Shown here: one piece after another, positions 34,644 to 45,940 of the stretch
Numbering within the stretch: the first letter of the stretch is position 1
Layout of the letters: each line of letters opens with the position of its first letter
Origin: an uncultured bacterium
GTDB lineage: Bacteria; Actinomycetota; Acidimicrobiia; Spongiisociales; UBA5794
NCBI GenBank assembly: GCA_963801165.1
Contig: CAWDDT010000005.1
Coordinates: forward strand, 1-64,000
Direction of reading: 5' to 3'
DNA length: 64,000 nt
The notes under the pieces: model-generated
Told to the model about the DNA's origin: nothing
Database searches by the model: none
What the model saw: the letters and a program-made list of their open reading frames with translations, nothing else
Position numbers and translations under genes: made by a program

Positions 34644-36467
34644 ATGACCCCACCCTCCTTCCGCAATATTGCATTGATCGCGCACGTCGACCACGGCAAA
34701 ACCACCCTGGTCGACGCCATGCTGCGCGCCGCCGGCGTTTTCGGGGCACATCAGGCCGTCGTCGACCGGGTAATGGACTCCAGCGACCAGGAGCGGGAGC
34801 GGGGAATCACGATCCTGGCGAAAGCGGCATCGATCGAGTGGAAGGGGACCCGGATCAACCTCGTGGACACCCCGGGCCACGCCGACTTCGGTGGTGAGGT
34901 GGAACGGGCCTTGATGCTCGTCGACGGTGTGCTCCTTCTCGTCGACGCGGCCGAGGGTCCGATGCCCCAGACCCGGTACGTGCTGACCAAGGCGCTGGCC
35001 AGGGGCTTGCCCGCCGTCGTGGTGATCAACAAGGTAGACCGGCCCGACGCCCGGATCGACGCGGTCGTCGACGAGGTGTACCAGCTGTTTTTCGATCTCG
35101 ATGCCGAGGATCGCCACATCGAGTTCCCCATCATCTCCTGCATCGCCCGCCAGGGCATCGCGGTGAAAGGAATCGGGATGCCCGATCCCGAATCCGACCT
35201 CAGCCCATTGCTGGACACGATCGTCGCCACCATCCCCGAACCGGCGGGTGATTCCGAGGCGCTACTGCAAGCGATCGTCACCAACCTCGACGCGTCGGAC
35301 TACCTGGGTCGGCTCGCCATCGGCCGGGTGATCCAGGGAACCCTGCATCGCGGCGAGCTGGTGACACTGTGCCACTCGCGCCAGGAAGAGCCACCGCTAC
35401 GGCGGAAGCTGACCCAGCTCATGGGCTTCACCGGTCTGGAGCGGACCGACGTCGACGAGAGGACGGCGGGCGATCTCTTCGTGATTGCCGGGTTCCCCGA
35501 GGTAGAGATCGGCGACACGATCGCCGACGCCGACGACCCTCACCCACTGCCGAGAGTGGAGGTCGACGAGCCTGTCCTACGGATGACGTTCGGCGTCAAC
35601 ACGTCGCCGGTAGCCGGTCGGGAAGGCAAGTTTGTGACCTCGCGCCAGATCCGGGACCGTCTCGAACGCGAGGTTCTCGGCAACGTCTCGATACGGATCG
35701 GCCCCACTGCGTCGCCCGAGATCATCGAGGTGGCGGGACGGGGCGAGCTCCAACTGGCCGTACTCATCGAGTCGATGCGGCGCGAAGGCTACGAGGTGCA
35801 GGTAAGCAGACCCGAGGTCATCATCCGCGAGATCGACGGCAAGCCGCACGAGCCTCTGGAGCGGGCGGTAGTCGACGTGCCCGACGAGTACGTGGGCGTG
35901 ATCACCCAGACCGTCGCCCCGCGCAAGGGCAAGGTCACCGACCTCCGCCCCGGTGATACCGGGCGCACCATCGTGACCCTCGAGGCGCCGGCACGTGGTC
36001 TGCTCGGGTTTCGCTCGCTGCTCATGACGTCGACCCGCGGCACCGCGCTTGTGCACCAGCAACATGCCGGGTGGATGCCGTGGGCGGGCGACCTCCCCCA
36101 CCGCGTCGGCGGAGCGATGATCGCCGACCGGAAGGGCAAGAGCACGGGGTTCGCTCTCGACAACCTCCAACAACGCGGTGAGCTGTTCATCGGGCCTGGT
36201 GTCGAAGTCTACGAGGGGATGGTCATCGGCGAGGCATCGCGACCGCAGAACATGGTTGTCAACCCCACCAAGGGCAAGCAGCTGACCAACATCAGAACCC
36301 ACCAGACCGACGAGGCCATCAAGCTGAAACCTCCACGCGAGCTCACCCTGGAGACGGCGATCGAGTGGATCGCCGCCGACGAGCTCGTCGAAGTGACGCC
36401 CGAGTCGATACGGGTAAGAAAGCGGCTACTTGCCGACAGCGACCGGAAGCATGCCAAGCAGCGCTGA
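34644..36467 (+). CDS. typA: Translational GTPase TypA/BipA
   Basis: RNIALIAHVDHGKTT, ERERGITI, DTPGHADFGGEVER, GRGELQL and DELVEVTP. Confidence 0.96.
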   Translation: MTPPSFRNIALIAHVDHGKTTLVDAMLRAAGVFGAHQAVVDRVMDSSDQERERGITILAKAASIEWKGTRINLVDTPGHADFGGEVERALMLVDGVLLLVDAAEGPMPQTRYVLTKALARGLPAVVVINKVDRPDARIDAVVDEVYQLFFDLDAEDRHIEFPIISCIARQGIAVKGIGMPDPESDLSPLLDTIVATIPEPAGDSEALLQAIVTNLDASDYLGRLAIGRVIQGTLHRGELVTLCHSRQEEPPLRRKLTQLMGFTGLERTDVDERTAGDLFVIAGFPEVEIGDTIADADDPHPLPRVEVDEPVLRMTFGVNTSPVAGREGKFVTSRQIRDRLEREVLGNVSIRIGPTASPEIIEVAGRGELQLAVLIESMRREGYEVQVSRPEVIIREIDGKPHEPLERAVVDVPDEYVGVITQTVAPRKGKVTDLRPGDTGRTIVTLEAPARGLLGFRSLLMTSTRGTALVHQQHAGWMPWAGDLPHRVGGAMIADRKGKSTGFALDNLQQRGELFIGPGVEVYEGMVIGEASRPQNMVVNPTKGKQLTNIRTHQTDEAIKLKPPRELTLETAIEWIAADELVEVTPESIRVRKRLLADSDRKHAKQR

Positions 36468-36542
36468 AGGCCCGTGGAGCCAGCCTCAGAGTGGGGCGAG
36501 CACCATTGATACACTGCGGCACACTCTTCTCAGGAGCTCTCC

Positions 36543-37502
36543 GTGCCGCACCCCGCTGTTTCTTTCAACGATGTTCAAACCGCCGCCGAACAGATCGAGC
36601 CGTTTGTCCATCGCACCCCGGTAGCCACGTCGGCGACACTGAACAGGCAGACCGGCGCCGAGATCTTCTTCAAATGCGAGAACCTGCAGAAAGTAGGTGC
36701 GTTCAAGGCAAGGGGGGCGGTCAACGCAGTCATGTCGCTCGACGACGCCGGTGCGGGCGTGGTGACGCACTCCTCAGGCAACCACGGAGCGGCGCTGGCG
36801 TACGCTGCGTCCATCCGCGGCATCCCCTGCACCGTCGTCATGCCGGAGGACGCCCCCCGGGTCAAGGTCGACGCAGTCCGAGGCTACGGAGCAACCATCG
36901 AGCTCTGCAAGCAGATGGAGCGGGACAGCACGGCCAGGCGGGTCGTCGAAGAGACCGGAGCGACCATGATCCATCCGTTCAACAACGCGGCCGTCATCGC
37001 CGGCCAGGGCACCGCGGCGCTCGAGCTCATCGAGGATGTCGGCGACCTCGACATGGTGATCGCGCCGATTGGAGGGGGCGGTCTCCTCTCCGGTACCGCC
37101 GTCACAACGAGGGCCCTCCTCCCGACCGCACGGGTCATCGGCGCCGAGCCGTTCGAGGTCGACGATGCCTACCGCTCGCTCGAGACGGGGATCATCCAGC
37201 CCCGGGTCGAGGGCCCGAGCACCATCGCCGACGGTCTGCTCACGGCGCTCGGGGATCTCACTTTTGACACGCTGCGGTGGGCAGGCGTGGAGATCGTGAG
37301 GGTCAATGAGGATGCGATCGTCGAGGCGGCGCTGTTCCATCTGCACCGGATGAAGCTACTGGTCGAGCCGTCGGGAGCCACCGGTCTCGCTGCGGTGCGC
37401 GCCCTGGGCAGCACCATCGCCGGCGAGCGCGTCGGCATCATCATCAGTGGCGGCAACACAGACCTGCGCTGGCTCCCCCAACTCAATCCGATTCCGGCGT
37501 AG
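36543..37502 (+). CDS. PLP-dependent serine/threonine dehydratase or serine-racemase-like protein
   Basis: KCENLQKVGAFKARG, HSSGNHG, PIGGGGL, EPSGA and SGGN; no ACT domain. Confidence 0.9.
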   Translation: MPHPAVSFNDVQTAAEQIEPFVHRTPVATSATLNRQTGAEIFFKCENLQKVGAFKARGAVNAVMSLDDAGAGVVTHSSGNHGAALAYAASIRGIPCTVVMPEDAPRVKVDAVRGYGATIELCKQMERDSTARRVVEETGATMIHPFNNAAVIAGQGTAALELIEDVGDLDMVIAPIGGGGLLSGTAVTTRALLPTARVIGAEPFEVDDAYRSLETGIIQPRVEGPSTIADGLLTALGDLTFDTLRWAGVEIVRVNEDAIVEAALFHLHRMKLLVEPSGATGLAAVRALGSTIAGERVGIIISGGNTDLRWLPQLNPIPA

Positions 37503-37541
37503 CGCGCCCCGGGACCCCGGCATTGTCTACGCAAGAAGCGC

Positions 37542-38426
37542 TCAGATGGTGCGGAAGTAATGACCCTCGGGGAGAGGGGCACCGACCCGGGTGAGTGCGA
37601 TGCGCCAGGAAGGGGACGACCCGAGGAAGGCGCGGAGCACGCGGATGAGCAGCCGGCCGACGATGATGGCACCCGGTCGCCGCTTGACCCCGATGGTGGT
37701 GCGTAGCGAGTCGGGGATGGTCGCCACGGCGGCCCGGAAGAGTACTCCGTAGCCGAGCCGGATGTTCCACCGCAGCGGGGGACGGCGGAGAAAGGAGACG
37801 GCATTGAGCATCCCTGGTGACGGTCCGATGTCGGGGTGGTTGACCACCCAGCCGGCCAGCTCGGCCGCGGTATCCGGCATCGGGTCTGCGTCGAGAAGAC
37901 GACCGACTTTGGTCTGTTCCGCAACGAACCTGTCTGCATCGGCGGCGCTCAAGCGATCCCTCCCGTACCACTGGTAAGCGACGAGAAACGAGTCGGTCAG
38001 TACGTTGTGTACCCAGGCGGCATCTGCCGGATCGTCTGCGGCGTAGGGGCGGCCCCGGTCCGACTCGCCGCGTACGGGCCGGTGTGCCCGGCGCACGATC
38101 TGTACCGCCTCCTCCACCTCGGGTATCGCCCCGAACGCCGTCGCGGTCACGTACGCCGACGTTCTGGACAGCCGGCCGAGCGGATCCTCCTGGTACCGGG
38201 AGTGATCGGCCACCCCGGCCGCCACCTCCTGGTGGGCCGCCTGCACCAGCAAGGCCCGGATCCCACCAACGAAGGTGGTGACATCGCCGATCACCCGCCA
38301 GGTGACCGAGTCGGGCCCGAATAGCCCCGGATCTCCCCGGTAGTCGAGGGAGTGCTCGAGCGGGTAGGGGGCGTGAGCGAACAGACCGGTAGTCGCCTGG
38401 ACTACGCGTTGCCGCAAACCGCGCAC
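37542..38426 (-). CDS. Oxygenase MpaB / DUF2236 family protein
   Basis: GLFGPDSVTWRV, RALLVQAAH, GVADHS, GRLSRT and AWVH; start approximate (GTG 38426). Confidence 0.82.
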   Translation of the reverse strand: MRGLRQRVVQATTGLFAHAPYPLEHSLDYRGDPGLFGPDSVTWRVIGDVTTFVGGIRALLVQAAHQEVAAGVADHSRYQEDPLGRLSRTSAYVTATAFGAIPEVEEAVQIVRRAHRPVRGESDRGRPYAADDPADAAWVHNVLTDSFLVAYQWYGRDRLSAADADRFVAEQTKVGRLLDADPMPDTAAELAGWVVNHPDIGPSPGMLNAVSFLRRPPLRWNIRLGYGVLFRAAVATIPDSLRTTIGVKRRPGAIIVGRLLIRVLRAFLGSSPSWRIALTRVGAPLPEGHYFRTI

Positions 38427-38442
38427 CGAAGCCGGCTGAGGT

Positions 38443-39423
38443 TCAGGAGAATGCCGGAAAGACCTCACGAGCGAAAAGCTCCAGACCGGATGTGTCGTAC
38501 GCCGCATCCTGGAAATAGACAATCGCATAGGTGAGCCCGGCTGCAACCCACGGCTGCAGCTTGGCCACCAGCTGCTCGGGTGTACCCGCCGTGGCCCGGA
38601 ACATCCGCTCCAATCCTTCGAGTCGGTCCGGTGTGACAAATGGCCGGTAGCGATCGAGGATCGCGCCGACTTTGTCATCGACCTCCGCCTCTGTTGCGGC
38701 GCACACCACGTTGAAGTTGGATGACCGCACGATTGCATCGAAGTCCGAGCCGACGTCGACGCAATGGCCCGCCAGTACCTCGGATTTGTGCACGAACTCG
38801 TCCACGTCGATGCCAAAGTTGGTGTAGGAGGCGTAGCGGGCCGCGACATTGAGGGTGAGCTTCTCGCCCCCGCCTGCGATCCAGAACGGGATGTGCGGTT
38901 GCTGCACCGGCTTGGGACGGCAGATCGCTCCATCGAGCGTGTAGTGCTTGCCTTCGAAGTGGACCTCGTCCTCGGTCCACAGCCGTTTCATGATCTCAAC
39001 GGCCTCACCGAGCTCACCGATTCGGACCGAGGGCTTGGGAAACGGGAAGCCATAGCCGTTGTACTCGTGCTCGTACCAGCCGGCACCGATCCCCATCTCG
39101 ACCCGCCCGCCGGATATGGCGTCGATCGAGACGGCGACCTTGGCAAGGTACGAGGGCGACCGGTATCCGTTGCAGGTACACATCTGGCCGAGACGCACCT
39201 TGTCGGTGGTGGCGGCCAGGGCAGCCATGAGCGTCCAAGCCTCATAGGTGACTTCCTGGGTGGGCACCGGGACGGTGTGGAAGTGGTCGTACACCCACAC
39301 CGACTCATAGCCGGCGGCCTCGATTGTCTTGGCGACCGACAGCATCGTCGGCCATTGCTGCTCGGTCTCGATCCCGACCAGATCGAGACGCCATCCTTGC
39401 GGGACAAATGCTCCGAATCTCAT
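38443..39423 (-). CDS. F420-dependent LLM-class oxidoreductase
   Basis: FVPQGWRLDL, WVYDHFH, RLGQMCTC, GIGAGWYEHEY and IAGGGE; TAGTTT 6 nt before ATG. Confidence 0.92.
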   Translation of the reverse strand: MRFGAFVPQGWRLDLVGIETEQQWPTMLSVAKTIEAAGYESVWVYDHFHTVPVPTQEVTYEAWTLMAALAATTDKVRLGQMCTCNGYRSPSYLAKVAVSIDAISGGRVEMGIGAGWYEHEYNGYGFPFPKPSVRIGELGEAVEIMKRLWTEDEVHFEGKHYTLDGAICRPKPVQQPHIPFWIAGGGEKLTLNVAARYASYTNFGIDVDEFVHKSEVLAGHCVDVGSDFDAIVRSSNFNVVCAATEAEVDDKVGAILDRYRPFVTPDRLEGLERMFRATAGTPEQLVAKLQPWVAAGLTYAIVYFQDAAYDTSGLELFAREVFPAFS

Positions 39424-39490
39424 GAGGGGAAACTACACCAAACACCGGCAACGTTCGCCGATGGCCACACGCCGGGCCGGAAACAACGTC

Positions 39491-39518
39491 TTGACCGCCC
39501 TTTGATCTGAGCTACTCT
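39491..39518 (+). promoter_or_regulatory. Housekeeping-sigma promoter of the Cys leader and operon
   Basis: TTGACC (39491-39496)-N16-TACTCT (39513-39518), 8 nt before ATG 39527. Confidence 0.7.
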
Positions 39519-39526
39519 GAATGCCG

Positions 39527-39595
39527 ATGAAGTACGCACTCGCCGCCGCCGCATGTTGCTGTTGTTGTTGCGACAGCACAATGCCGCGCGGATAG
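39527..39595 (+). CDS. Polycysteine leader peptide (attenuator sORF), MKYALAAAACCCCCCDSTMPRG
   Basis: Six consecutive Cys codons TGT TGC TGT TGT TGT TGC at 39554-39571, directly upstream of a cysteine-synthase-family gene. An in-frame ATG at 39521 is too close to the -10 to be transcribed. Confidence 0.88.
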   Translation: MKYALAAAACCCCCCDSTMPRG

Positions 39596-39634
39596 GACGA
39601 GATGTAGCCACAACTAGCAGCACAAGACTCAACC

Positions 39635-39670
39635 ACCCGTGACGGCAAGCCGTTACGGGTTTTCTTTTTC
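39635..39670 (+). terminator. Attenuator intrinsic terminator in the 5' leader
   Basis: ACCCGTGACGG-caag-CCGTTACGGGT (11 bp, one G-U) followed by TTTCTTTTTC, ending 11 nt before the downstream ATG. Confidence 0.88.
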
Positions 39671-39681
39671 TGGAGCATGAA

Positions 39682-40668
39682 ATGACAGCCACCATCTCGA
39701 ATACGGAGACATCTCTCGGTACCGACACCGGGGTACGCCGGTTCGACGACATCCGGGATCTGCTCCCGAACGTCGACAACCCCACACCCCTCGTTCGACT
39801 CAACCATGTCGCCCCGAACACGTATCTGAAGCTCGAGTGGCTCAACCCGTTCGGCTCGGTAAAAGACAGGGCCGCGGCCTACCTGCTCGCCGGAATCATC
39901 GAACGGGGCGAGCTGGACGGGCGTGATCTCGTCGAAGCGTCATCCGGAAACACCGCGATCGCTCTGGCCGCTCTCGCCGGGCTCGTCGGAAAACGGCTCA
40001 CTGTCACCATCCCCGATGGCGTCCCCGAAGAGAAGAAGGTGATGTTGCGGATGCTCGGCGCCGAGGTGTGGGAGACACCCGACGATCTGTGCCCTGTCGA
40101 CCACCCCAAGGACGGTGCCATCGCCCTCGCACGCTCGCTGGCCGCGTCGGAGGGCGGGAGGCGCTTCGTGATGGCCAACCAGTACGAGAACGAGGACAAC
40201 GTCAAGGCTCACTACGAGACCACCGGCCCTGAGATATGGCGCCAGACAGATGGCCGCGTCAGGTACTTCGTCGCCGGTCTCGGAACGACGGGAACGATCA
40301 CGGGGACCGGCCGCTATCTCAAGGAGCGGGATCCGTCCATCCAGGTCATTGCCATCGAGCCAAACCCGGGCCATCGCCTCCCCGGGCTCAAGAGCTTCGC
40401 CGAGGCGAAGGAGCCGGGAATCCTCGACTGGAGCGTTATCGACGACGTGGTCCGCGTCGCCGACGAGGACGCCTATGAGATCACCAAACGTCTGCACCGT
40501 GAGGAGGGCCTCATCGTCGGCCCGTCGACCGGCGCCGTCGTCCACGCCATGACCGGGCTTGCCGACACCGACTCCGCCATCGCAGTCGGGATCTCTCCCG
40601 ACTCCGGTTCCAAGTACTCGAGCTACTTCGCCGGCATCCTCGGCGACGAGGGCCTCCCCCGAATCTGA
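39682..40668 (+). CDS. PLP-dependent cysteine synthase family protein (CysK/CysM-like)
   Basis: NPFGSVKDR (PLP Lys), ASSGNT, GLGTTGT, GPSTGA and PDSGSKY; RBS GGAG. Confidence 0.9.
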   Translation: MTATISNTETSLGTDTGVRRFDDIRDLLPNVDNPTPLVRLNHVAPNTYLKLEWLNPFGSVKDRAAAYLLAGIIERGELDGRDLVEASSGNTAIALAALAGLVGKRLTVTIPDGVPEEKKVMLRMLGAEVWETPDDLCPVDHPKDGAIALARSLAASEGGRRFVMANQYENEDNVKAHYETTGPEIWRQTDGRVRYFVAGLGTTGTITGTGRYLKERDPSIQVIAIEPNPGHRLPGLKSFAEAKEPGILDWSVIDDVVRVADEDAYEITKRLHREEGLIVGPSTGAVVHAMTGLADTDSAIAVGISPDSGSKYSSYFAGILGDEGLPRI

Positions 40669-40679
40669 TAGGAAGAACC

Positions 40680-40931
40680 ATGGATATTGAACAGCTCGAA
40701 GCAACCGACACTCTCGACACCAGCGGGCTCTTGTGCCCCCTCCCGGTTTACAAGGCCGGAATCGCGCTCGGCAAGCTCGAGCCCGGCCAGATTCTCCGCT
40801 TGATTTGCACCGACCCCGGCTCTCTTGCCGACATCCCCGCCATGGCGCGCCAGCGGGGCGACACGCTGCTGGCCAGCGACAGCACGGAAGGTTCGCAGGT
40901 GTTCTGGATCGAGAAAGGGTCACAGACATGA
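40680..40931 (+). CDS. tusA: TusA/SirA-family sulfur carrier
   Basis: LDTSGLLCPLP (CPxP persulfide site), L.PGQIL, TDPGS..DI and terminal IEK. Confidence 0.9.
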   Translation: MDIEQLEATDTLDTSGLLCPLPVYKAGIALGKLEPGQILRLICTDPGSLADIPAMARQRGDTLLASDSTEGSQVFWIEKGSQT

Positions 40932-41440
40932 CTGCACTCGAAAGACCGGCCGATCTCGAGCCCGGTGCGGAACCCGCACGCAAGCGACTGGCGCTGGTGG
41001 CTTCGAAAGGAACTCTGGACCAGGCCTACCCCCCGCTCATCCTGGCGACCACCGCGGCCAGCCTGGGCTGGGAAGTCGGCATCTACTTCACCTTCTACGG
41101 TCTCGACATCCTCCACAAGGATCGTATGGAGCACCTCAAGGTGGCATCGCTGGCCAACCCTTCCGGCCCGATTCGTGTTCCCAATCTCCTGGGGGCGATG
41201 CCCGGCGCAACTGCGGCCGCAACCAAGATGATGAAGAACTGGATGAAGAACGCAAAGATGCCCGACCTCGCCGAATTCATGGACATGGCCCGCGATCTCG
41301 GCGTCACGTTGTTCGCCTGCGCCACGACCATGGGCGTGATGGGGGTCAAGGACTCAGACTTGATCGAGGGGTGTGATATCGCCGGAGCCGCCGCCTTCCT
41401 CGACTTCGCCGCCGGCGCCGACGTCCAATTGTTCATCTGA
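40928..41440 (+). CDS. DsrE2-like (DsrE/F/H family) sulfurtransferase
   Basis: KGTLDQAYPPLILA, YFTFYGL, FACATTMGVMG, GAAAFL and QLFI; ATGA overlap with tusA. Confidence 0.88.
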   Translation: MTALERPADLEPGAEPARKRLALVASKGTLDQAYPPLILATTAASLGWEVGIYFTFYGLDILHKDRMEHLKVASLANPSGPIRVPNLLGAMPGATAAATKMMKNWMKNAKMPDLAEFMDMARDLGVTLFACATTMGVMGVKDSDLIEGCDIAGAAAFLDFAAGADVQLFI

Positions 41441-43075
41441 GACCGGGAGCTGGAGCCGGAAGTTGGCCTCCGTCCCATCGTGGTGATAGCTGAGTTCGCC
41501 ACCCATCAACCTGGCGAGGACCCGTGCCACGTGAAGACCGAGCCCGACCGAGCCGACGACACCAGTGTCGCCGACTCGTTCGTACGGCTCGAAGATTCGT
41601 TCCCGAGCCTCGGTTGGGATCGGATCGCCCGTGTCCCGCACCTCGGCGAGTGCCCATCCCGCCTCCGCCCGGACCGTGATGCGGACCTCGTCACCGCCAT
41701 GGCGATGCGCATTCGAGACGAGATTGCGCAGCACCTGGCGGAGCCGTCCCGGGTCGGCACGAGTCCAGACGGTCTCGGTGATGGTGGCGACGTCTCCGAG
41801 CAACTCAGCCACGCGGTGGGCCTCGGCACCGAGATCGCAACGCTCCAGGCTCATGGTGAGCTGGCCGGACTCGGCGCGGGCGGTGACCAGCAGATCTTCA
41901 ACGATGTCAACGACATCCCGGGTCTCGGCGGCGACGATACCGAGCAGCTCCGCCTGTTCGGCGGCGGCAAAGTCGTCGGGCCGGTTCACCAGCTCTTCGG
42001 TCAGGCCCAGGATCGAGGTGAGCGGGGTGCGCAGCTCGTGGCTGACGCTGGCGACGAATTGGTCCCGCTCTTGGAGTTGGCGCTCCAGCCCTCGCTCGGC
42101 CTGGCGCAACCGGGTCACATCGGTCGCCACGAGCACGAGCCGGTGGGGTGCCGATCGTCCGGCGACCCGACCAAGGCTCCACAGGAACACATAATCCCGT
42201 TCCGTTCCGTCGGTGTGGGCAAAGGTCACCTCGCCCGAGCCGGCGGTGTTGCCGCTTACCAAGGCCGTCAGCATCGACCAGGCCACGTCCCGGACCCCGG
42301 GTAGGTTGGGACCGGCGACGAACGTTTCCCAGACACCGAAGTCCTCCGCCATGTCGTCGGCCACCTGGTTTGTGTACGTGAGCCGCACCATATGCATCAT
42401 CTCCGCATACAGGCCATCGAGCGACGTGGCGGGCAAACCGGTCTCCGCCATCGTGCGAACAAGAGCAATCACCCCTGAGATGTCGAATTCGAAGGTGGCA
42501 ACGGGGATGACACTTGCCAGATCGCTGTACCTGCTCTGGGAAACGGCGAGCGATTCCAGAACTCTGATCACGAGATACATGACGGTTCCCAGCACCGCCA
42601 CCACCACCAGACAGTCCGAGACGATCTCGAGAGTGAGCCCGTTGAGGGTGATCTGGCTGATGAGGACGATGACCAGGGCGGCCGAGAGAAACCCTGTGGC
42701 GACCCGCCAGTGCTTGTCTCTTGCGATGAAGACAGCGAGCACCCCGAGGCCGAAAACGACCACCTCACCCCCGACCCCGGCGACATATTCAGTCGCGCCG
42801 CGTACGGCGGCAAACGCCTCAGCCGCGATTGCGAACAACACAATCAACGCCAGCAGGGCGATCACGTTGGGACGGTTCTGGCGAAGCATGACCAGGGCCA
42901 CCCCGGCGGTCAGCAACGCCGCGACCAGCGTGATGACGCCACCCGGCTCCCCGACAATCACCTGCACGGTCGACGAGAGGGCAAGAGCGACGCCACCGAT
43001 CAAAGCAAGTCGGACCGCACTGCGCCTGGCTAGTTCGAGCACAGGGTCGGAGCCCGCTGTGGAGATCGGATTCAT
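41354..43075 (-). CDS. Orphan multi-TM sensor histidine kinase (paralogue of 28185..29876)
   Basis: About 6 TMs, SHELRTP, LLVTARAESG, NLVSNA and GLGL; start set at ATG 43075; 3' end overlaps dsrE by 87 nt. Confidence 0.88.
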   Translation of the reverse strand: MNPISTAGSDPVLELARRSAVRLALIGGVALALSSTVQVIVGEPGGVITLVAALLTAGVALVMLRQNRPNVIALLALIVLFAIAAEAFAAVRGATEYVAGVGGEVVVFGLGVLAVFIARDKHWRVATGFLSAALVIVLISQITLNGLTLEIVSDCLVVVAVLGTVMYLVIRVLESLAVSQSRYSDLASVIPVATFEFDISGVIALVRTMAETGLPATSLDGLYAEMMHMVRLTYTNQVADDMAEDFGVWETFVAGPNLPGVRDVAWSMLTALVSGNTAGSGEVTFAHTDGTERDYVFLWSLGRVAGRSAPHRLVLVATDVTRLRQAERGLERQLQERDQFVASVSHELRTPLTSILGLTEELVNRPDDFAAAEQAELLGIVAAETRDVVDIVEDLLVTARAESGQLTMSLERCDLGAEAHRVAELLGDVATITETVWTRADPGRLRQVLRNLVSNAHRHGGDEVRITVRAEAGWALAEVRDTGDPIPTEARERIFEPYERVGDTGVVGSVGLGLHVARVLARLMGGELSYHHDGTEANFRLQLPVSDEQLDVGAGGEVEEGGGSGDITPLDQV

Positions 43076-43082
43076 GATCGAC

Positions 43083-43109
43083 CAGTCGGCAATGCCACGT
43101 TTCACTTGA
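43083..43109 (-). promoter_or_regulatory. sigma28/WhiG-type promoter for the orphan kinase
   Basis: TCAA-N15-GCCGACTG, 7 nt upstream of ATG 43075. Confidence 0.55.
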
Positions 43110-43258
43110 GCGCGGGCACGGTGCCCCCCATACCCGGGCGAATCGCAGTACGCTCGTTGCGGGGTCTGGTGGCGGATGTAGGGGGTCTCCAGACTCTAGC
43201 TATCGTTGGACTCATGCAACATGGTTAAAAGCAAAAAGGTCCAGGAGGCCGGGTTGAA

Positions 43259-45940
43259 ATGCGTCCCCATTACTTAAGCGAGCTATTCGCCCCCAAATCG
43301 GTGGCGATGTTCGGTGCCAGCGAAACGCCAGATTCCGTAGGGCAGGTTGTCTTCAAGAACCTGCTCGAGGCAGGCTTCTCCGGAGACATCTACGCCCTGA
43401 ACCCCAAACGAGAGACCGTTCAAGGCCAGAAGGCCTACAACAACCTCGATGAGATCGGCAAGGACATCGACCTCGCCATCGTGGCGACACCGGCGCGAAC
43501 AGTCCCGGGCATTGTCGAGCAGTGTGGCACCTACGGCATCAAGTCCATGATCATCCTCTCTGCGGGTTTCCGCGAGATCGGAGAGCAGGGGCGGGCCATC
43601 GAGGACAAGGTCCGTGACGCCGCTCGCTCCCACGGGATCCGCTTCCTGGGCCCGAACTGTCTCGGAATCATCCGCCCCAGCATCGGCTTCAACGCCACGT
43701 TCGGCAACAACAACGCCTCAGACGGCGGGATCGCTCTCGTCTCGCAATCCGGTGCGTTGTGCACGTCGATCCTCGACTGGGCCGAGAACCGCGACGTGGG
43801 CTTTTCCGCCGTGGTTTCGACAGGTATCGCCGCCGACCTCGACTTTGGCGACATTCTCGATTATCTAGCTTCCGATCCCAAGACCGAGAGCATCATCCTG
43901 TATGTCGAGGGTCTCACCGATGCCCGCCGCTTCATGAGCGGGCTGAGGGCGGCGGCACGCATCAAGCCCGTCATCGCCATCAAGGCTGGACGCTCGACCG
44001 AGGGAGCGGCAGCGTCGATGTCGCACACGGGGGCCCTCGTCGGCGGCGACGCCGCCTTCACCGCTGCTCTCAACCGATCCGGTGTCGTCCAGGTCGACAC
44101 CATCAGCCAGGTGTTCGCTGCGGCCAGCACCCTGTCTTCGAAGTACAAGGCCGTCGGCAAGCGCATGGCCATGATCACCAATGCCGGTGGCCCTGCCGTT
44201 CTCGCCACCGACCACGCCCACGGCGCCGACCTCGAGATCGCCACGCTCGGCGAGGAGACGATCAAGGCACTCAACGAGGCGCTACCGGATACCTGGTCGC
44301 ACGGCAACCCGATCGACATCATCGGAGATGCTACGCCGGAGCGCTACCAGGAGGCCATCGACATCGTACTGAAGGATCCAGGTGTGGACGGTGTCCTCGT
44401 GATCCTCACCCCGCAGGCGATGACGGCGCCGTACGAGGTCGCAGAGGCTGTGGTGAAAGCGGCCGAGAACAACCGGAAGCCGATTATCACGTCCTGGATG
44501 GGGGGCAAGCAGGTCGACCCGGCCCGTTCTCTGTTCCGGCAGGCGCGGATCCCGACGTTCAACACCCCCGAGGCCGCGGTAGATGCGTTCCACTACCTGG
44601 CGTCCTACAAGGCCAACCAGCAAAACCTGCTGCAGACTCCAGGGCGCCTCCCCATCGAGCACGAAGAGCCAAACGTGGAAGCCGCCCGGCTGATAATCGA
44701 GTCGGCTCTCAACGAGAAACGCTCCGTGCTGACGGAACCCGAATCGGTCGCGCTTCTCGAGGCATTCAACGTCCCGACCGTGCGCAATGGCATCGCCCGC
44801 TCCGCCGAGGAAGCCCTGGTGCTGGCAACCTCGATAGGTTTCCCGATCGTCATGAAGATCTACTCCGGGGACATCTCGCACAAGTCGGATGTGGGCGGGG
44901 TGAAGTTGAACATCCGCAACGCCGCCGATGTGCGTGGCAGCTACCGCGAATTGGTGGAGAGGGTGCAGAAGAACCGTCCCGACGCAGCGATCGCCGGAGT
45001 GACCGTCGAGGCGATGCACCGCACCACCAATGGCCGCGAGGTCATGGTCGGCGTGATCAACGACCCCGTGTTCGGACCGGTGATCAGCTTCGGAGCGGGT
45101 GGCACCTTTGTCGAGGTGATGGGAGACGCCTCCATTGCCATTCCTCCGATCAACGAGCGTCTGGCCAGGAACCTGATCAGCCGCACCAAGGTGTCGAAAG
45201 CGCTGGGTGAGTTCCGCAACATGCCCGCGGCAAATGTCGACGCGCTAGTCGACGTGCTGCTCCGTGTCTCCAACATGGCCTGCGAGCTGCCCTGGCTCAA
45301 GGAGATGGACATCAACCCGCTCATCGTCGACGAGCGCGGAGCAATGGCCGTCGACGCCCGCATCGTCGTTCACATCCCGAGGCCTTCCCCGGACGCCTAC
45401 GCCCATATGGCCATCCACCCCTACCCGACGGATCTCGAGTCGGTGTTCCAGCTGCCCGACGGACGCGACGTCACCATCCGCCCGATCCGGCCGGAGGACG
45501 CCCAGATCGAGCAGGACTTCGTGAGGAACCTATCCGACGAGGCCAAATACTTCCGGTTCATGCATTCCGTGCATGAGCTGACGCCGGAGATGCTGGTCAG
45601 GTTCACCCAGATCGACTATGACCGGGAGATGGCCCTGATCGCCACGACGTCCGACGACGGGAACGAGGTCGAGCACGGGGTTGTGCGGTACGTGACCAAC
45701 CCCGATCGGACGAGCTGCGAGTTTGCAGTTGTCGTCTCCGATGAGTTCCAGGGCCACGGTATCGGCCAGCGCATGTTGACCCGTCTCATGGAGATTGCCC
45801 GCTCTCGCGGCCTCGACATGATGGAGGGCGAGGTGCTGACGGCGAACCACCGTATGCTCGAGCTGGTGCGCTCGATGGATTTCCAGATCGAGCGCAGCCC
45901 GGAGAACCCCGGCGTCCAATACGTCTGGACAAAGCTGTAA
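43259..45940 (+). CDS. pat: NDP-forming acyl-CoA synthetase domain fused to GNAT (protein lysine acetyltransferase Pat/YfiQ type)
   Basis: GPNCLG, SQSGA, SHTGAL, TNAGG, NPIDI, HKSDVGGV, HPYP, RPIRPED and C-terminal GNAT FQGHGIG. Confidence 0.9.
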   Translation: MRPHYLSELFAPKSVAMFGASETPDSVGQVVFKNLLEAGFSGDIYALNPKRETVQGQKAYNNLDEIGKDIDLAIVATPARTVPGIVEQCGTYGIKSMIILSAGFREIGEQGRAIEDKVRDAARSHGIRFLGPNCLGIIRPSIGFNATFGNNNASDGGIALVSQSGALCTSILDWAENRDVGFSAVVSTGIAADLDFGDILDYLASDPKTESIILYVEGLTDARRFMSGLRAAARIKPVIAIKAGRSTEGAAASMSHTGALVGGDAAFTAALNRSGVVQVDTISQVFAAASTLSSKYKAVGKRMAMITNAGGPAVLATDHAHGADLEIATLGEETIKALNEALPDTWSHGNPIDIIGDATPERYQEAIDIVLKDPGVDGVLVILTPQAMTAPYEVAEAVVKAAENNRKPIITSWMGGKQVDPARSLFRQARIPTFNTPEAAVDAFHYLASYKANQQNLLQTPGRLPIEHEEPNVEAARLIIESALNEKRSVLTEPESVALLEAFNVPTVRNGIARSAEEALVLATSIGFPIVMKIYSGDISHKSDVGGVKLNIRNAADVRGSYRELVERVQKNRPDAAIAGVTVEAMHRTTNGREVMVGVINDPVFGPVISFGAGGTFVEVMGDASIAIPPINERLARNLISRTKVSKALGEFRNMPAANVDALVDVLLRVSNMACELPWLKEMDINPLIVDERGAMAVDARIVVHIPRPSPDAYAHMAIHPYPTDLESVFQLPDGRDVTIRPIRPEDAQIEQDFVRNLSDEAKYFRFMHSVHELTPEMLVRFTQIDYDREMALIATTSDDGNEVEHGVVRYVTNPDRTSCEFAVVVSDEFQGHGIGQRMLTRLMEIARSRGLDMMEGEVLTANHRMLELVRSMDFQIERSPENPGVQYVWTKL

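Follow-up and report, generated by a model that had tools for sequence, protein, structure and literature searches.

Inorganic sulfur enters biomass through the synthesis of cysteine, and the bacterial routes known to us draw either on free sulfide or thiosulfate (CysK and CysM) or on a thiocarboxylated carrier protein (CysO). In Mycobacterium tuberculosis, the sulfur for CysM comes from a carrier protein, and the serine substrate is O-phosphoserine. The gene neighborhoods of this CysM-CysO pathway are described in the available part of an earlier study (PMC1779556), polycysteine leader open reading frames (ORFs) of mycobacteria have been reported to act as cysteine-responsive attenuators (10.1101/834739, as far as the accessible text goes), and in Metallosphaera, according to the accessible sections of another report, sulfur is transferred irreversibly from DsrE3A to TusA (PMC4175335). 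The locus described here combines elements of these systems. It lies in a window of 64,000 nucleotides (nt) (contig CAWDDT010000005.1 of assembly GCA_963801165.1, positions 1 to 64,000 of the forward strand) from an uncultured member of the Acidimicrobiia, and it encodes a cysteine synthase-like enzyme with a cysteine (Cys137) in an inserted loop, a TusA-family sulfur carrier, and a DsrE2-family protein. On balance, and with some reserve, we favor the reading that these genes form a cysteine biosynthesis operon that would be induced by cysteine shortage and fed by a persulfide relay from DsrE2 via TusA to Cys137. The biosynthetic role, taken by itself, is very probable.

The three ORFs are codirectional, all on the + strand, and encode the loop-Cys synthase, a fold-type II pyridoxal 5'-phosphate (PLP) enzyme of 328 amino acids (39682-40668), the TusA-family carrier of 83 amino acids (40680-40931), and a soluble DsrE2-family protein of 170 amino acids (40928-41440). 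The gap between the synthase and TusA genes is 11 nt (40669-40679), and the TusA and DsrE2 genes share an ATGA overlap (40928-40931), which bears out the tight linkage noted in a sequence-only reading of the window that preceded this analysis. A GGAG ribosome-binding site, read from the sequence, is located at 39672-39675 (+), 6 nt 5' of the synthase ATG.

The synthase is clearly a member of the fold-type II PLP enzymes (Pfam PALP, PF00291; 224.7 bits against a cutoff of 35). Among the NCBIfam models, the nearest are those of cysteine synthases, yet every curated cutoff was missed: the cysKM subfamily TIGR01136 gave 259.6 bits (cutoff, 344.15), the CysM models TIGR01138 and NF008735 gave 251.1 (394.2) and 237.1 (413), the CysK model TIGR01139 gave 232.8 (350.95), and the Cds1 desulfhydrase model gave only 48.5 (600). 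The best solved relatives are O-acetylserine sulfhydrylase B (CysM) of Salmonella, followed by Escherichia coli CysM (E = 2.8e-59 to 1.5e-56), and an AlphaFold2 model (predicted local distance difference test [pLDDT], 86.5) matched O-acetylserine sulfhydrylase structures with template modeling (TM) scores of 0.75-0.83, while a search of the ESM Atlas returned generic PALP clusters only. The catalytic framework is in place, with the PLP lysine Lys61 (codon 39862-39864) and the asparagine loop S88-G-N-T91, which, together with Gln167, are invariant in all sequences of a 52-sequence orthologue alignment.

What sets the enzyme apart is the loop ETPDDLCPVDHPKDGAI, in which Cys137 (codon 40090-40092) sits within the insert D134-D-L-C-P138. 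The sequence-only reading had described this loop as an addition relative to CysK and CysM, and the HMMER alignment agrees: in CysM from E. coli and Salmonella, this region is shorter by five residues and contains no cysteine. In the same alignment, the loop cysteine lies six residues before the Met119 position of CysM. We take this position to be the methionine at the active-site entrance of CysM and CysK, an assumption that fits the titles of M120A mutant entries among the Foldseek matches. Cys137 is kept in 51 of the 52 orthologues, in 30 of which it is the sole cysteine of the protein, and residues 136-140 are the only internal stretch of the AlphaFold2 model with a pLDDT below 50.

Both companions of the synthase carry the cysteines expected of sulfur relay proteins in the sequence-only reading, namely, those of a CPLP motif in TusA and of an FAC motif in DsrE2. 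The TusA protein is a family member by Pfam (PF01206; 63.9 bits against 28.6) and falls short of the equivalog model for E. coli TusA (45 bits against 78); its active-site motif is C19-P-L-P, with the Cys codon at 40734-40736, and Cys19 is kept in 48/48 orthologues. The DsrE2 protein likewise belongs to its Pfam family (PF13686, DrsE_2; 147.9 bits against 25), and with 150.3 bits it does not reach the cutoff of 210 of the NCBIfam DsrE2 model (NF047629). Cys131, within F-A-C (codon 41318-41320), is kept in 41/41 orthologues. The second cysteines of both proteins vary among orthologues, with Cys149 of DsrE2 present in only 20 of the 41.

Orthologues of the synthase were found in 39 of 401 Acidimicrobiia genomes (own genome counted), at 63-77% identity and all in one order. 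Among the 38 orthologous loci from the 400 other genomes of the class, 29 contain the full trio, 6 contain the synthase and TusA only (one of these lies too near a contig end for the presence of DsrE2 to be judged), and 3 contain the synthase alone; TusA is thus kept in 35 of 38. We also collected public loci, defined as the 80 best tblastn matches to the window synthase. The 13 closest of these, two of them in metagenome-assembled genomes (MAGs) labeled Gemmatimonadota, all have synthase, TusA, and DsrE2 in the same order (best-segment identity, 66-82%). Since clustering of all neighboring ORFs in 52 loci revealed no fourth conserved gene, we consider these three genes to be the unit. The linkage and the loop cysteine, on which the sequence-only reading depended, are therefore both conserved (trio in 13/13 public and 29/38 class loci; Cys137 in 51/52). 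Its inclusion of DsrE2 in the relay needs correction in that DsrE2 appears to be dispensable in the 6 loci with synthase and TusA only. In one public locus (L007, 931-1812, +), a single frame without stop codons contains both the DsrE2 match and a TusA match that covers no more than a short part of TusA; the two genes are either fused or joined by a frameshift in the assembly of that MAG.

The single orthologue without the loop cysteine, at locus L087 (3491-4486, -), has a serine in its place, and there both TusA and DsrE2 are gone, while the six-Cys leader discussed below is retained. The corresponding genome (G266) is among the few in the order with CysE. A second case is provided by a clade nested beside that of the trio synthases: its four members, the nearest Cys-less relatives, have a sulfurtransferase partner in 0/4 loci, although one of these loci has a TusA-domain gene 4.4 kb upstream. 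Loss of the cysteine accompanies loss of the partner in both of these cases, which we count as independent, and the proposed tie between the loop cysteine and the carriers is strengthened accordingly.

The loop is by no means confined to this operon. The motif D-x-L-C-P was found in 68 of the 80 public loci, labeled Chloroflexota, Planctomycetota, Verrucomicrobiota, Acidobacteriota, Myxococcota, archaea, and others, and in 28 of 149 library representatives (P0121-P0269). In a FastTree phylogeny of 183 sequences (representatives outside 285-520 residues and four short-match rows were excluded), all D-x-L-C/U-P sequences, including the window synthase, fell into one 96-row group with a Shimodaira-Hasegawa (SH)-like support of 82. 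This group excludes the CysK of the same genome and stands apart from those clades in which the members tested either pass the CysM or CysK models or have cystathionine beta-synthase (CBS) as their best score; in particular, the window synthase is outside the true CysM clade, the tested member of which (P0167) passes the CysM models. The placement in a phylogeny for which the sequence-only reading had called therefore puts the enzyme in neither the CysK nor the CysM clade, and the D-x-L-C-P loop marks what is, on this tree, a multiphylum subfamily outside both.

Counting as a partner any sulfurtransferase that is fused to the synthase or located at most 1.5 kb downstream on the same strand, we found one in 70 of the 76 loci with cysteine or selenocysteine (Sec) in the loop, and in three of the six partnerless loci, no more than 442 nt are left between the synthase and the end of the sequence. 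The partners are TusA plus DsrE2 in 13 loci, TusA in 7 (fused in 6), a C-terminally fused rhodanese in 19, among which are all 8 Sec forms, and an adjacent tandem, i.e., two-domain, rhodanese in 31. A Pfam scan of 24 downstream ORFs identified 20 rhodaneses, the consensus of which contains a CRIGERS loop. The active-site cysteine is kept in the fused TusA domains and in 20/20 aligned fused rhodanese domains (the 19 loci plus P0130). Synthases with a DDLCP-type insert, a survey of which the sequence-only reading had called for, thus recurrently have sulfurtransferase partners, but the insert is not special to the operon, and its usual partner is a rhodanese rather than TusA and DsrE2.

In eight loci (L035, L041-L044, L053, L060, and L067), the loop-Cys codon is replaced by an in-frame TGA (e.g., at 6382-6384 of L035), and all eight genes encode cysteine synthase/rhodanese fusions. 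SelA was found in five of five TGA-form genomes tested, over the cutoff in four. The sequence 3' of the TGA is conserved even at synonymous positions and includes a GGUCCCC-GGA-GGGGGCC hairpin, considered as a possible SECIS element, the folding energies of which, in four stretches, were no better than those of shuffled sequences. We regard these fusions as a candidate selenoprotein family. Residues at which Cys and Sec replace one another are typically catalytic or redox active, and the occurrence of this exchange at the loop position suggests that the loop cysteine is catalytic. The 25 loci in which the synthase is fused directly to TusA or rhodanese, in turn, argue for sulfur transfer between partner and synthase.

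These observations bear on a simpler explanation, namely, that the enzyme is an ordinary sulfide- or thiosulfate-using synthase, that TusA and DsrE2 only generate freely diffusing sulfide from thiosulfate, polysulfide, or low-molecular-weight persulfides, and that the loop cysteine is protective or regulatory, for example as a persulfidation switch. The accessible text of a study on YeeD, a TusA-family protein, indicates that it decomposes thiosulfate with release of sulfide (PMC11073785), and the genome under study contains a YeeE-family transporter; the basic residue at the Arg210 position of CysM is kept (Lys in 47 and Arg in 5 of 52 orthologues), and some orthologues lack DsrE2 or an adjacent TusA. 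While all of this would suit free sulfide, diffusion does not account well for TusA or rhodanese being fused to the synthase in 25 loci, for the Sec/Cys exchange, which points to catalysis, or for cysteine and partner having been lost together in both cases, and we consider the free-sulfide explanation rather unlikely.

A further alternative follows from the likeness to CysM. Thiosulfate could react with the aminoacrylate, as in CysM, to give S-sulfocysteine, from which attack by the loop Cys or Sec would expel sulfite, with TusA, DsrE2, or rhodanese resolving the resulting disulfide or carrying a thiosulfonate. CysM is the closest solved relative, and the subfamily is most often partnered by a tandem rhodanese that resembles CysA2 and contains a CRIGERS loop, a motif that is presumably linked to thiosulfate sulfurtransferases. 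In addition, DsrE3A and TusA of Metallosphaera carry Cys-S-thiosulfonates, according to the available portion of that report (PMC4175335). Conversely, both CysM equivalog cutoffs were missed by far, the synthase is outside the true CysM clade, and rhodaneses and TusA are, as a matter of family knowledge, sulfane-sulfur donors and not disulfide reductants. Taking these points together, we judge the S-sulfocysteine route quite improbable.

Upstream of the operon, a leader ORF of 24 codons, MPMKYALAAAACCCCCCDSTMPRG, was read from the sequence at 39521-39595 (+), with a second in-frame ATG at 39527 and six consecutive Cys codons at 39554-39571. Behind the ORF, a consensus scan identified a G+C-rich hairpin of the intrinsic-terminator type (11 pairs, 7 of them G-C, with a loop of 4) and a T-tract, TTTCTTTTTC, at 39635-39670 (+). 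The RNA fold of 39525-39685 has a z score of -2.84. The end of the leader ORF (UGCCGCGCGG) could pair with the 5' arm of the terminator, which would make 39582-39647 (+) a candidate antiterminator (ViennaRNA, -23.1 kcal/mol for 39581-39649); when a stalled ribosome was masked in the fold, the minimum-energy structure was still the terminator, without a switch to the antiterminator. A search of Rfam over 38900-41800 yielded only a chance-level gyrA match (E = 0.93), so that the leader corresponds to no catalogued RNA family. Across genomes, a Cys-rich short ORF ending 63-162 nt before the synthase was present in 48 of the 49 orthologous loci with enough upstream sequence, compared with 2/49 for the antisense strand and none for stretches downstream of the operon. 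With an ORF rich in cognate codons, a terminator ahead of the first gene, and conservation of the leader, the region has, as far as can be read from its layout, the arrangement of a classical attenuator, in which only the antiterminator is no more than a candidate. The Cys attenuator named in the sequence-only reading is thus matched by the layout of leader plus terminator.

The genomic background provides a second line of evidence. The genome to which the window belongs (4.55 Mb, 98% complete) yielded no match to the sulfite reductase family NIR_SIR and has one gene of the 3'-phosphoadenosine 5'-phosphosulfate (PAPS) reductase family. When 201 genomes of the order were surveyed, 8 yielded NIR_SIR and 15 yielded CysE; most members of the order seem to lack the textbook sulfate-to-cysteine pathway. 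Co-occurrence of the trio with the absence of sulfite reductase is nondiscriminating, since nearly the whole order is without NIR_SIR (8/201 with it) and one genome (G194) has both. In five near-complete trio-bearing relatives (1-9 contigs), no CysE was found (best score, 36.6 bits) and nothing exceeded the cysKM cutoff. Besides the trio synthase, each of the five has a single further homologue, which scores best as a CBS in the three relatives checked. The loop-Cys enzyme is, going by these gene inventories, the only candidate de novo cysteine synthase in the five relatives. Since no serine acetyltransferase was found in them, O-phosphoserine is probably the serine substrate in such CysE-less relatives; the Lys or Arg at the CysM Arg210 position (52/52) is compatible with O-phosphoserine and no proof of it.

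Leader and background together speak to the possibility that the reaction runs the other way, with the enzyme acting as a desulfhydrase or desulfurase analogue that passes cysteine sulfur through the loop cysteine to TusA or rhodanese, to be used in the thiolation of cofactors or tRNA. IscS, which combines a mobile loop cysteine with a TusA partner, is formally analogous. Such an enzyme would hardly be expected to be induced when cysteine is scarce, as the Cys-rich leader in 48/49 loci predicts, or to be the only cysteine synthase-type gene besides a CBS-like one in five relatives without CysE and CysK, and the Cds1 model was missed by a wide margin (48.5 bits against 600). We deem the reversed direction very improbable indeed, and the desulfhydrase reading, which the sequence-only reading had named as a possible refutation, was set aside on regulatory grounds: because of the Cys-rich leader in 48/49 loci, the operon is taken to be biosynthetic. 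The assimilatory role derived from cysteine-starvation control is thereby backed by both the leader and the five relatives.

The same genome contains a second sulfur relay cluster, a set like those of sulfur oxidizers, on contig C6 (approximately 264290-271100; locus L081, 8291-15098), which encodes TusA, DsrE2, a DsrE-like protein, and a GcvH-like lipoate-binding (LbpA-like) protein. Directly behind these come genes for both subunits of an [NiFe] hydrogenase, the small one first and the large one last, with an unassigned ORF of 225 amino acids and an HdrD/CCG-type iron-sulfur protein between them. The hydrogenase looks like an Isp-type enzyme tied to sulfur metabolism. The TusA and DsrE2 proteins of the window are distinct paralogues of the C6 pair (42% and 50% identical). 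Separately, contig C9 (41914-43535, -) encodes a YeeE/Sulf_transp-family membrane protein next to or fused with a weak rhodanese match, possibly an importer of thiosulfate or a related sulfur compound.

In the operation that we envisage for the operon, scarcity of Cys-tRNA would cause ribosomes to stall on the six leader Cys codons, upon which the terminator at 39635-39670 would be read through and the three genes expressed. The synthase would form the aminoacrylate from an activated serine, probably O-phosphoserine in the CysE-less relatives, and its sulfur would be sulfane sulfur, arriving as a persulfide and not as free sulfide. The persulfide would pass from Cys131 of DsrE2 to Cys19 of TusA and on to Cys137, which, on its flexible inserted loop, would be located near the active-site entrance; the Cys137 persulfide would then attack the aminoacrylate, and cysteine would be freed by thiol exchange or via sulfide liberated within the active site. 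We propose TusA as the proximal donor because it is fused to the synthase elsewhere, adjoins it here, and is kept in six orthologues without DsrE2. Comparison with relatives favors a persulfide relay to the loop cysteine as the likely mode of delivery, and the fusions to TusA and rhodanese, like the Sec exchange in relatives, point in the direction of the carrier-fed synthase that had been proposed from the sequence; the order of the carriers and the direction in which sulfur moves along them are inferred, as are its source, the serine that is used, and the way in which the product is released.

Several points weigh against this reading. The operon is not essential in its own genome, which encodes a bona fide CysK (455.1 bits, passing the models) beside CysE on the same contig. 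Six orthologues are without DsrE2, and two loci (L090 and L094) keep the loop cysteine without an adjacent TusA, while the operon itself contains neither a carrier-loading enzyme nor a reductant for product release. The loop that carries Cys137 is modeled with a pLDDT below 50, which leaves its geometry relative to PLP poorly defined. The public loci, being best matches, are not an unbiased sample, and the tree is a FastTree tree only, with the subfamily branch at an SH-like support of 82. Finally, work on M. tuberculosis CysK2, according to the accessible part of PMC13712938, shows that the sulfur donor of enzymes of this type is not predictable from sequence; in that case it was revised by experiment.

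The genes flanking the operon encode a luciferase-like monooxygenase, an MpaB-like oxygenase, another PALP enzyme, a histidine kinase, and an acyl-coenzyme A (acyl-CoA) synthetase/GNAT protein. In agreement with the sequence-only reading, annotation of the ORFs of 36000-45000 revealed no cysE, CysO, Mec, or MoeZ gene among the neighbors; a ThiS/MoaD-like carrier, a JAB peptidase, and an E1-rhodanese were absent from these ORFs and from the conserved neighbors of the 52 loci, the whole genome not having been searched for CysO. The second PALP enzyme (36543-37502, +; 252 bits), 2.2 kb upstream of the operon, looks, from its size, like a serine/threonine dehydratase or racemase. The ORF at 43259-45940 (+) encodes a protein of 893 amino acids with acyl-CoA synthetase (NDP-forming) and GNAT domains and has no relation to the operon. 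Near-identical DNA was found in sequencing runs labeled soil and salt-marsh metagenome, including one contig of 2,469 letters that spans 39576-41500 with 37 differences. One RNA library run contained two 151-nt contigs, matching the synthase and DsrE2 genes with one and two mismatches, respectively; DNA carryover is possible, and contigs say nothing about transcript levels, nor do stretches of the operon without coverage carry any meaning; we do not take these contigs as evidence of expression.

More broadly, the loop-Cys enzymes might constitute an unrecognized and widespread class of cysteine synthases that would accept protein persulfide sulfur through a mobile-loop Cys or Sec from a dedicated TusA, DsrE2, or rhodanese donor and that would be the sole de novo route to cysteine in many Acidimicrobiia, a generalization that we put forward tentatively, at slightly less than even confidence. 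In the literature within our coverage, which excludes most subscription journals, we found no description of a loop-Cys, TusA-linked, or rhodanese-fused cysteine synthase or of a Sec form. If the proposal is correct, sulfane sulfur (thiosulfate, polysulfide, and persulfides) and O-phosphoserine would be the entry of sulfur in genomes without sulfite reductase, CysE, and CysK, which would explain how lineages of this kind synthesize cysteine; delivery of sulfur by a persulfide relay, with a catalytic Cys or Sec on the synthase, would add a third mode to those known; and TusA and DsrE2 would have an assimilatory role outside sulfur oxidizers, in addition to which a new selenoprotein family would have been found. 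Members of the subfamily currently go by the names "cysteine synthase" or "CysM" in annotations from many phyla, among them Acidimicrobiia, Chloroflexota, Planctomycetota, Verrucomicrobiota, Acidobacteriota, Myxococcota, and archaea, through which a wrong assumption about the substrate would spread into metabolic models. The relay prediction is testable with three small soluble proteins.

Compared with described systems, the leader resembles the mycobacterial polycysteine leaders (Canestrari et al., 10.1101/834739) in being a short upstream ORF with consecutive Cys codons ahead of a cysteine-related operon. In contrast to the Ms5788A case, which is translational according to the available text of that study, the window has an intrinsic terminator following the leader ORF, and its control therefore looks transcriptional. 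Among the synthases, M. tuberculosis CysK2 (Rv0848) is similarly an additional actinobacterial cysteine synthase, stress induced and O-phosphoserine dependent; it is reported to use sulfide, and the accessible part of the report mentions no carrier partner (PMC13712938). CysM of E. coli and Salmonella (PDB 2bhs and 2jc3) shares its fold with the window synthase (Foldseek TM score, 0.78-0.80; 36-38% identity) and has in common with it the PLP lysine, the SGNT loop, and the basic residue at the Arg210 position, whereas it has no inserted loop, no loop cysteine, and no carrier partner and uses free thiosulfate or sulfide. The M. tuberculosis CysM-CysO-Mec-MoeZ system is alike in pairing a CysM-like synthase with protein-carried sulfur. 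CysO, however, is a ubiquitin-like thiocarboxylate protein that is activated by an E1-rhodanese and from which the product is released by a JAB peptidase, none of which is encoded beside the window operon; here the carriers would be the putative persulfide proteins TusA and DsrE2, and the synthase appears to contribute a reactive cysteine of its own (Sec in relatives). Lastly, the rhd-tusA-dsrE2 and DsrE3A-TusA relays of Allochromatium and Metallosphaera (PMC4175335 and PMC11094781) involve the same protein families, cysteines, and gene adjacency, but, as far as the available portions of these reports describe them, such relays of sulfur oxidizers feed dissimilatory oxidation (DsrC and sHdr), whereas the pair in the window is associated with a synthase and with control that looks specific to cysteine.

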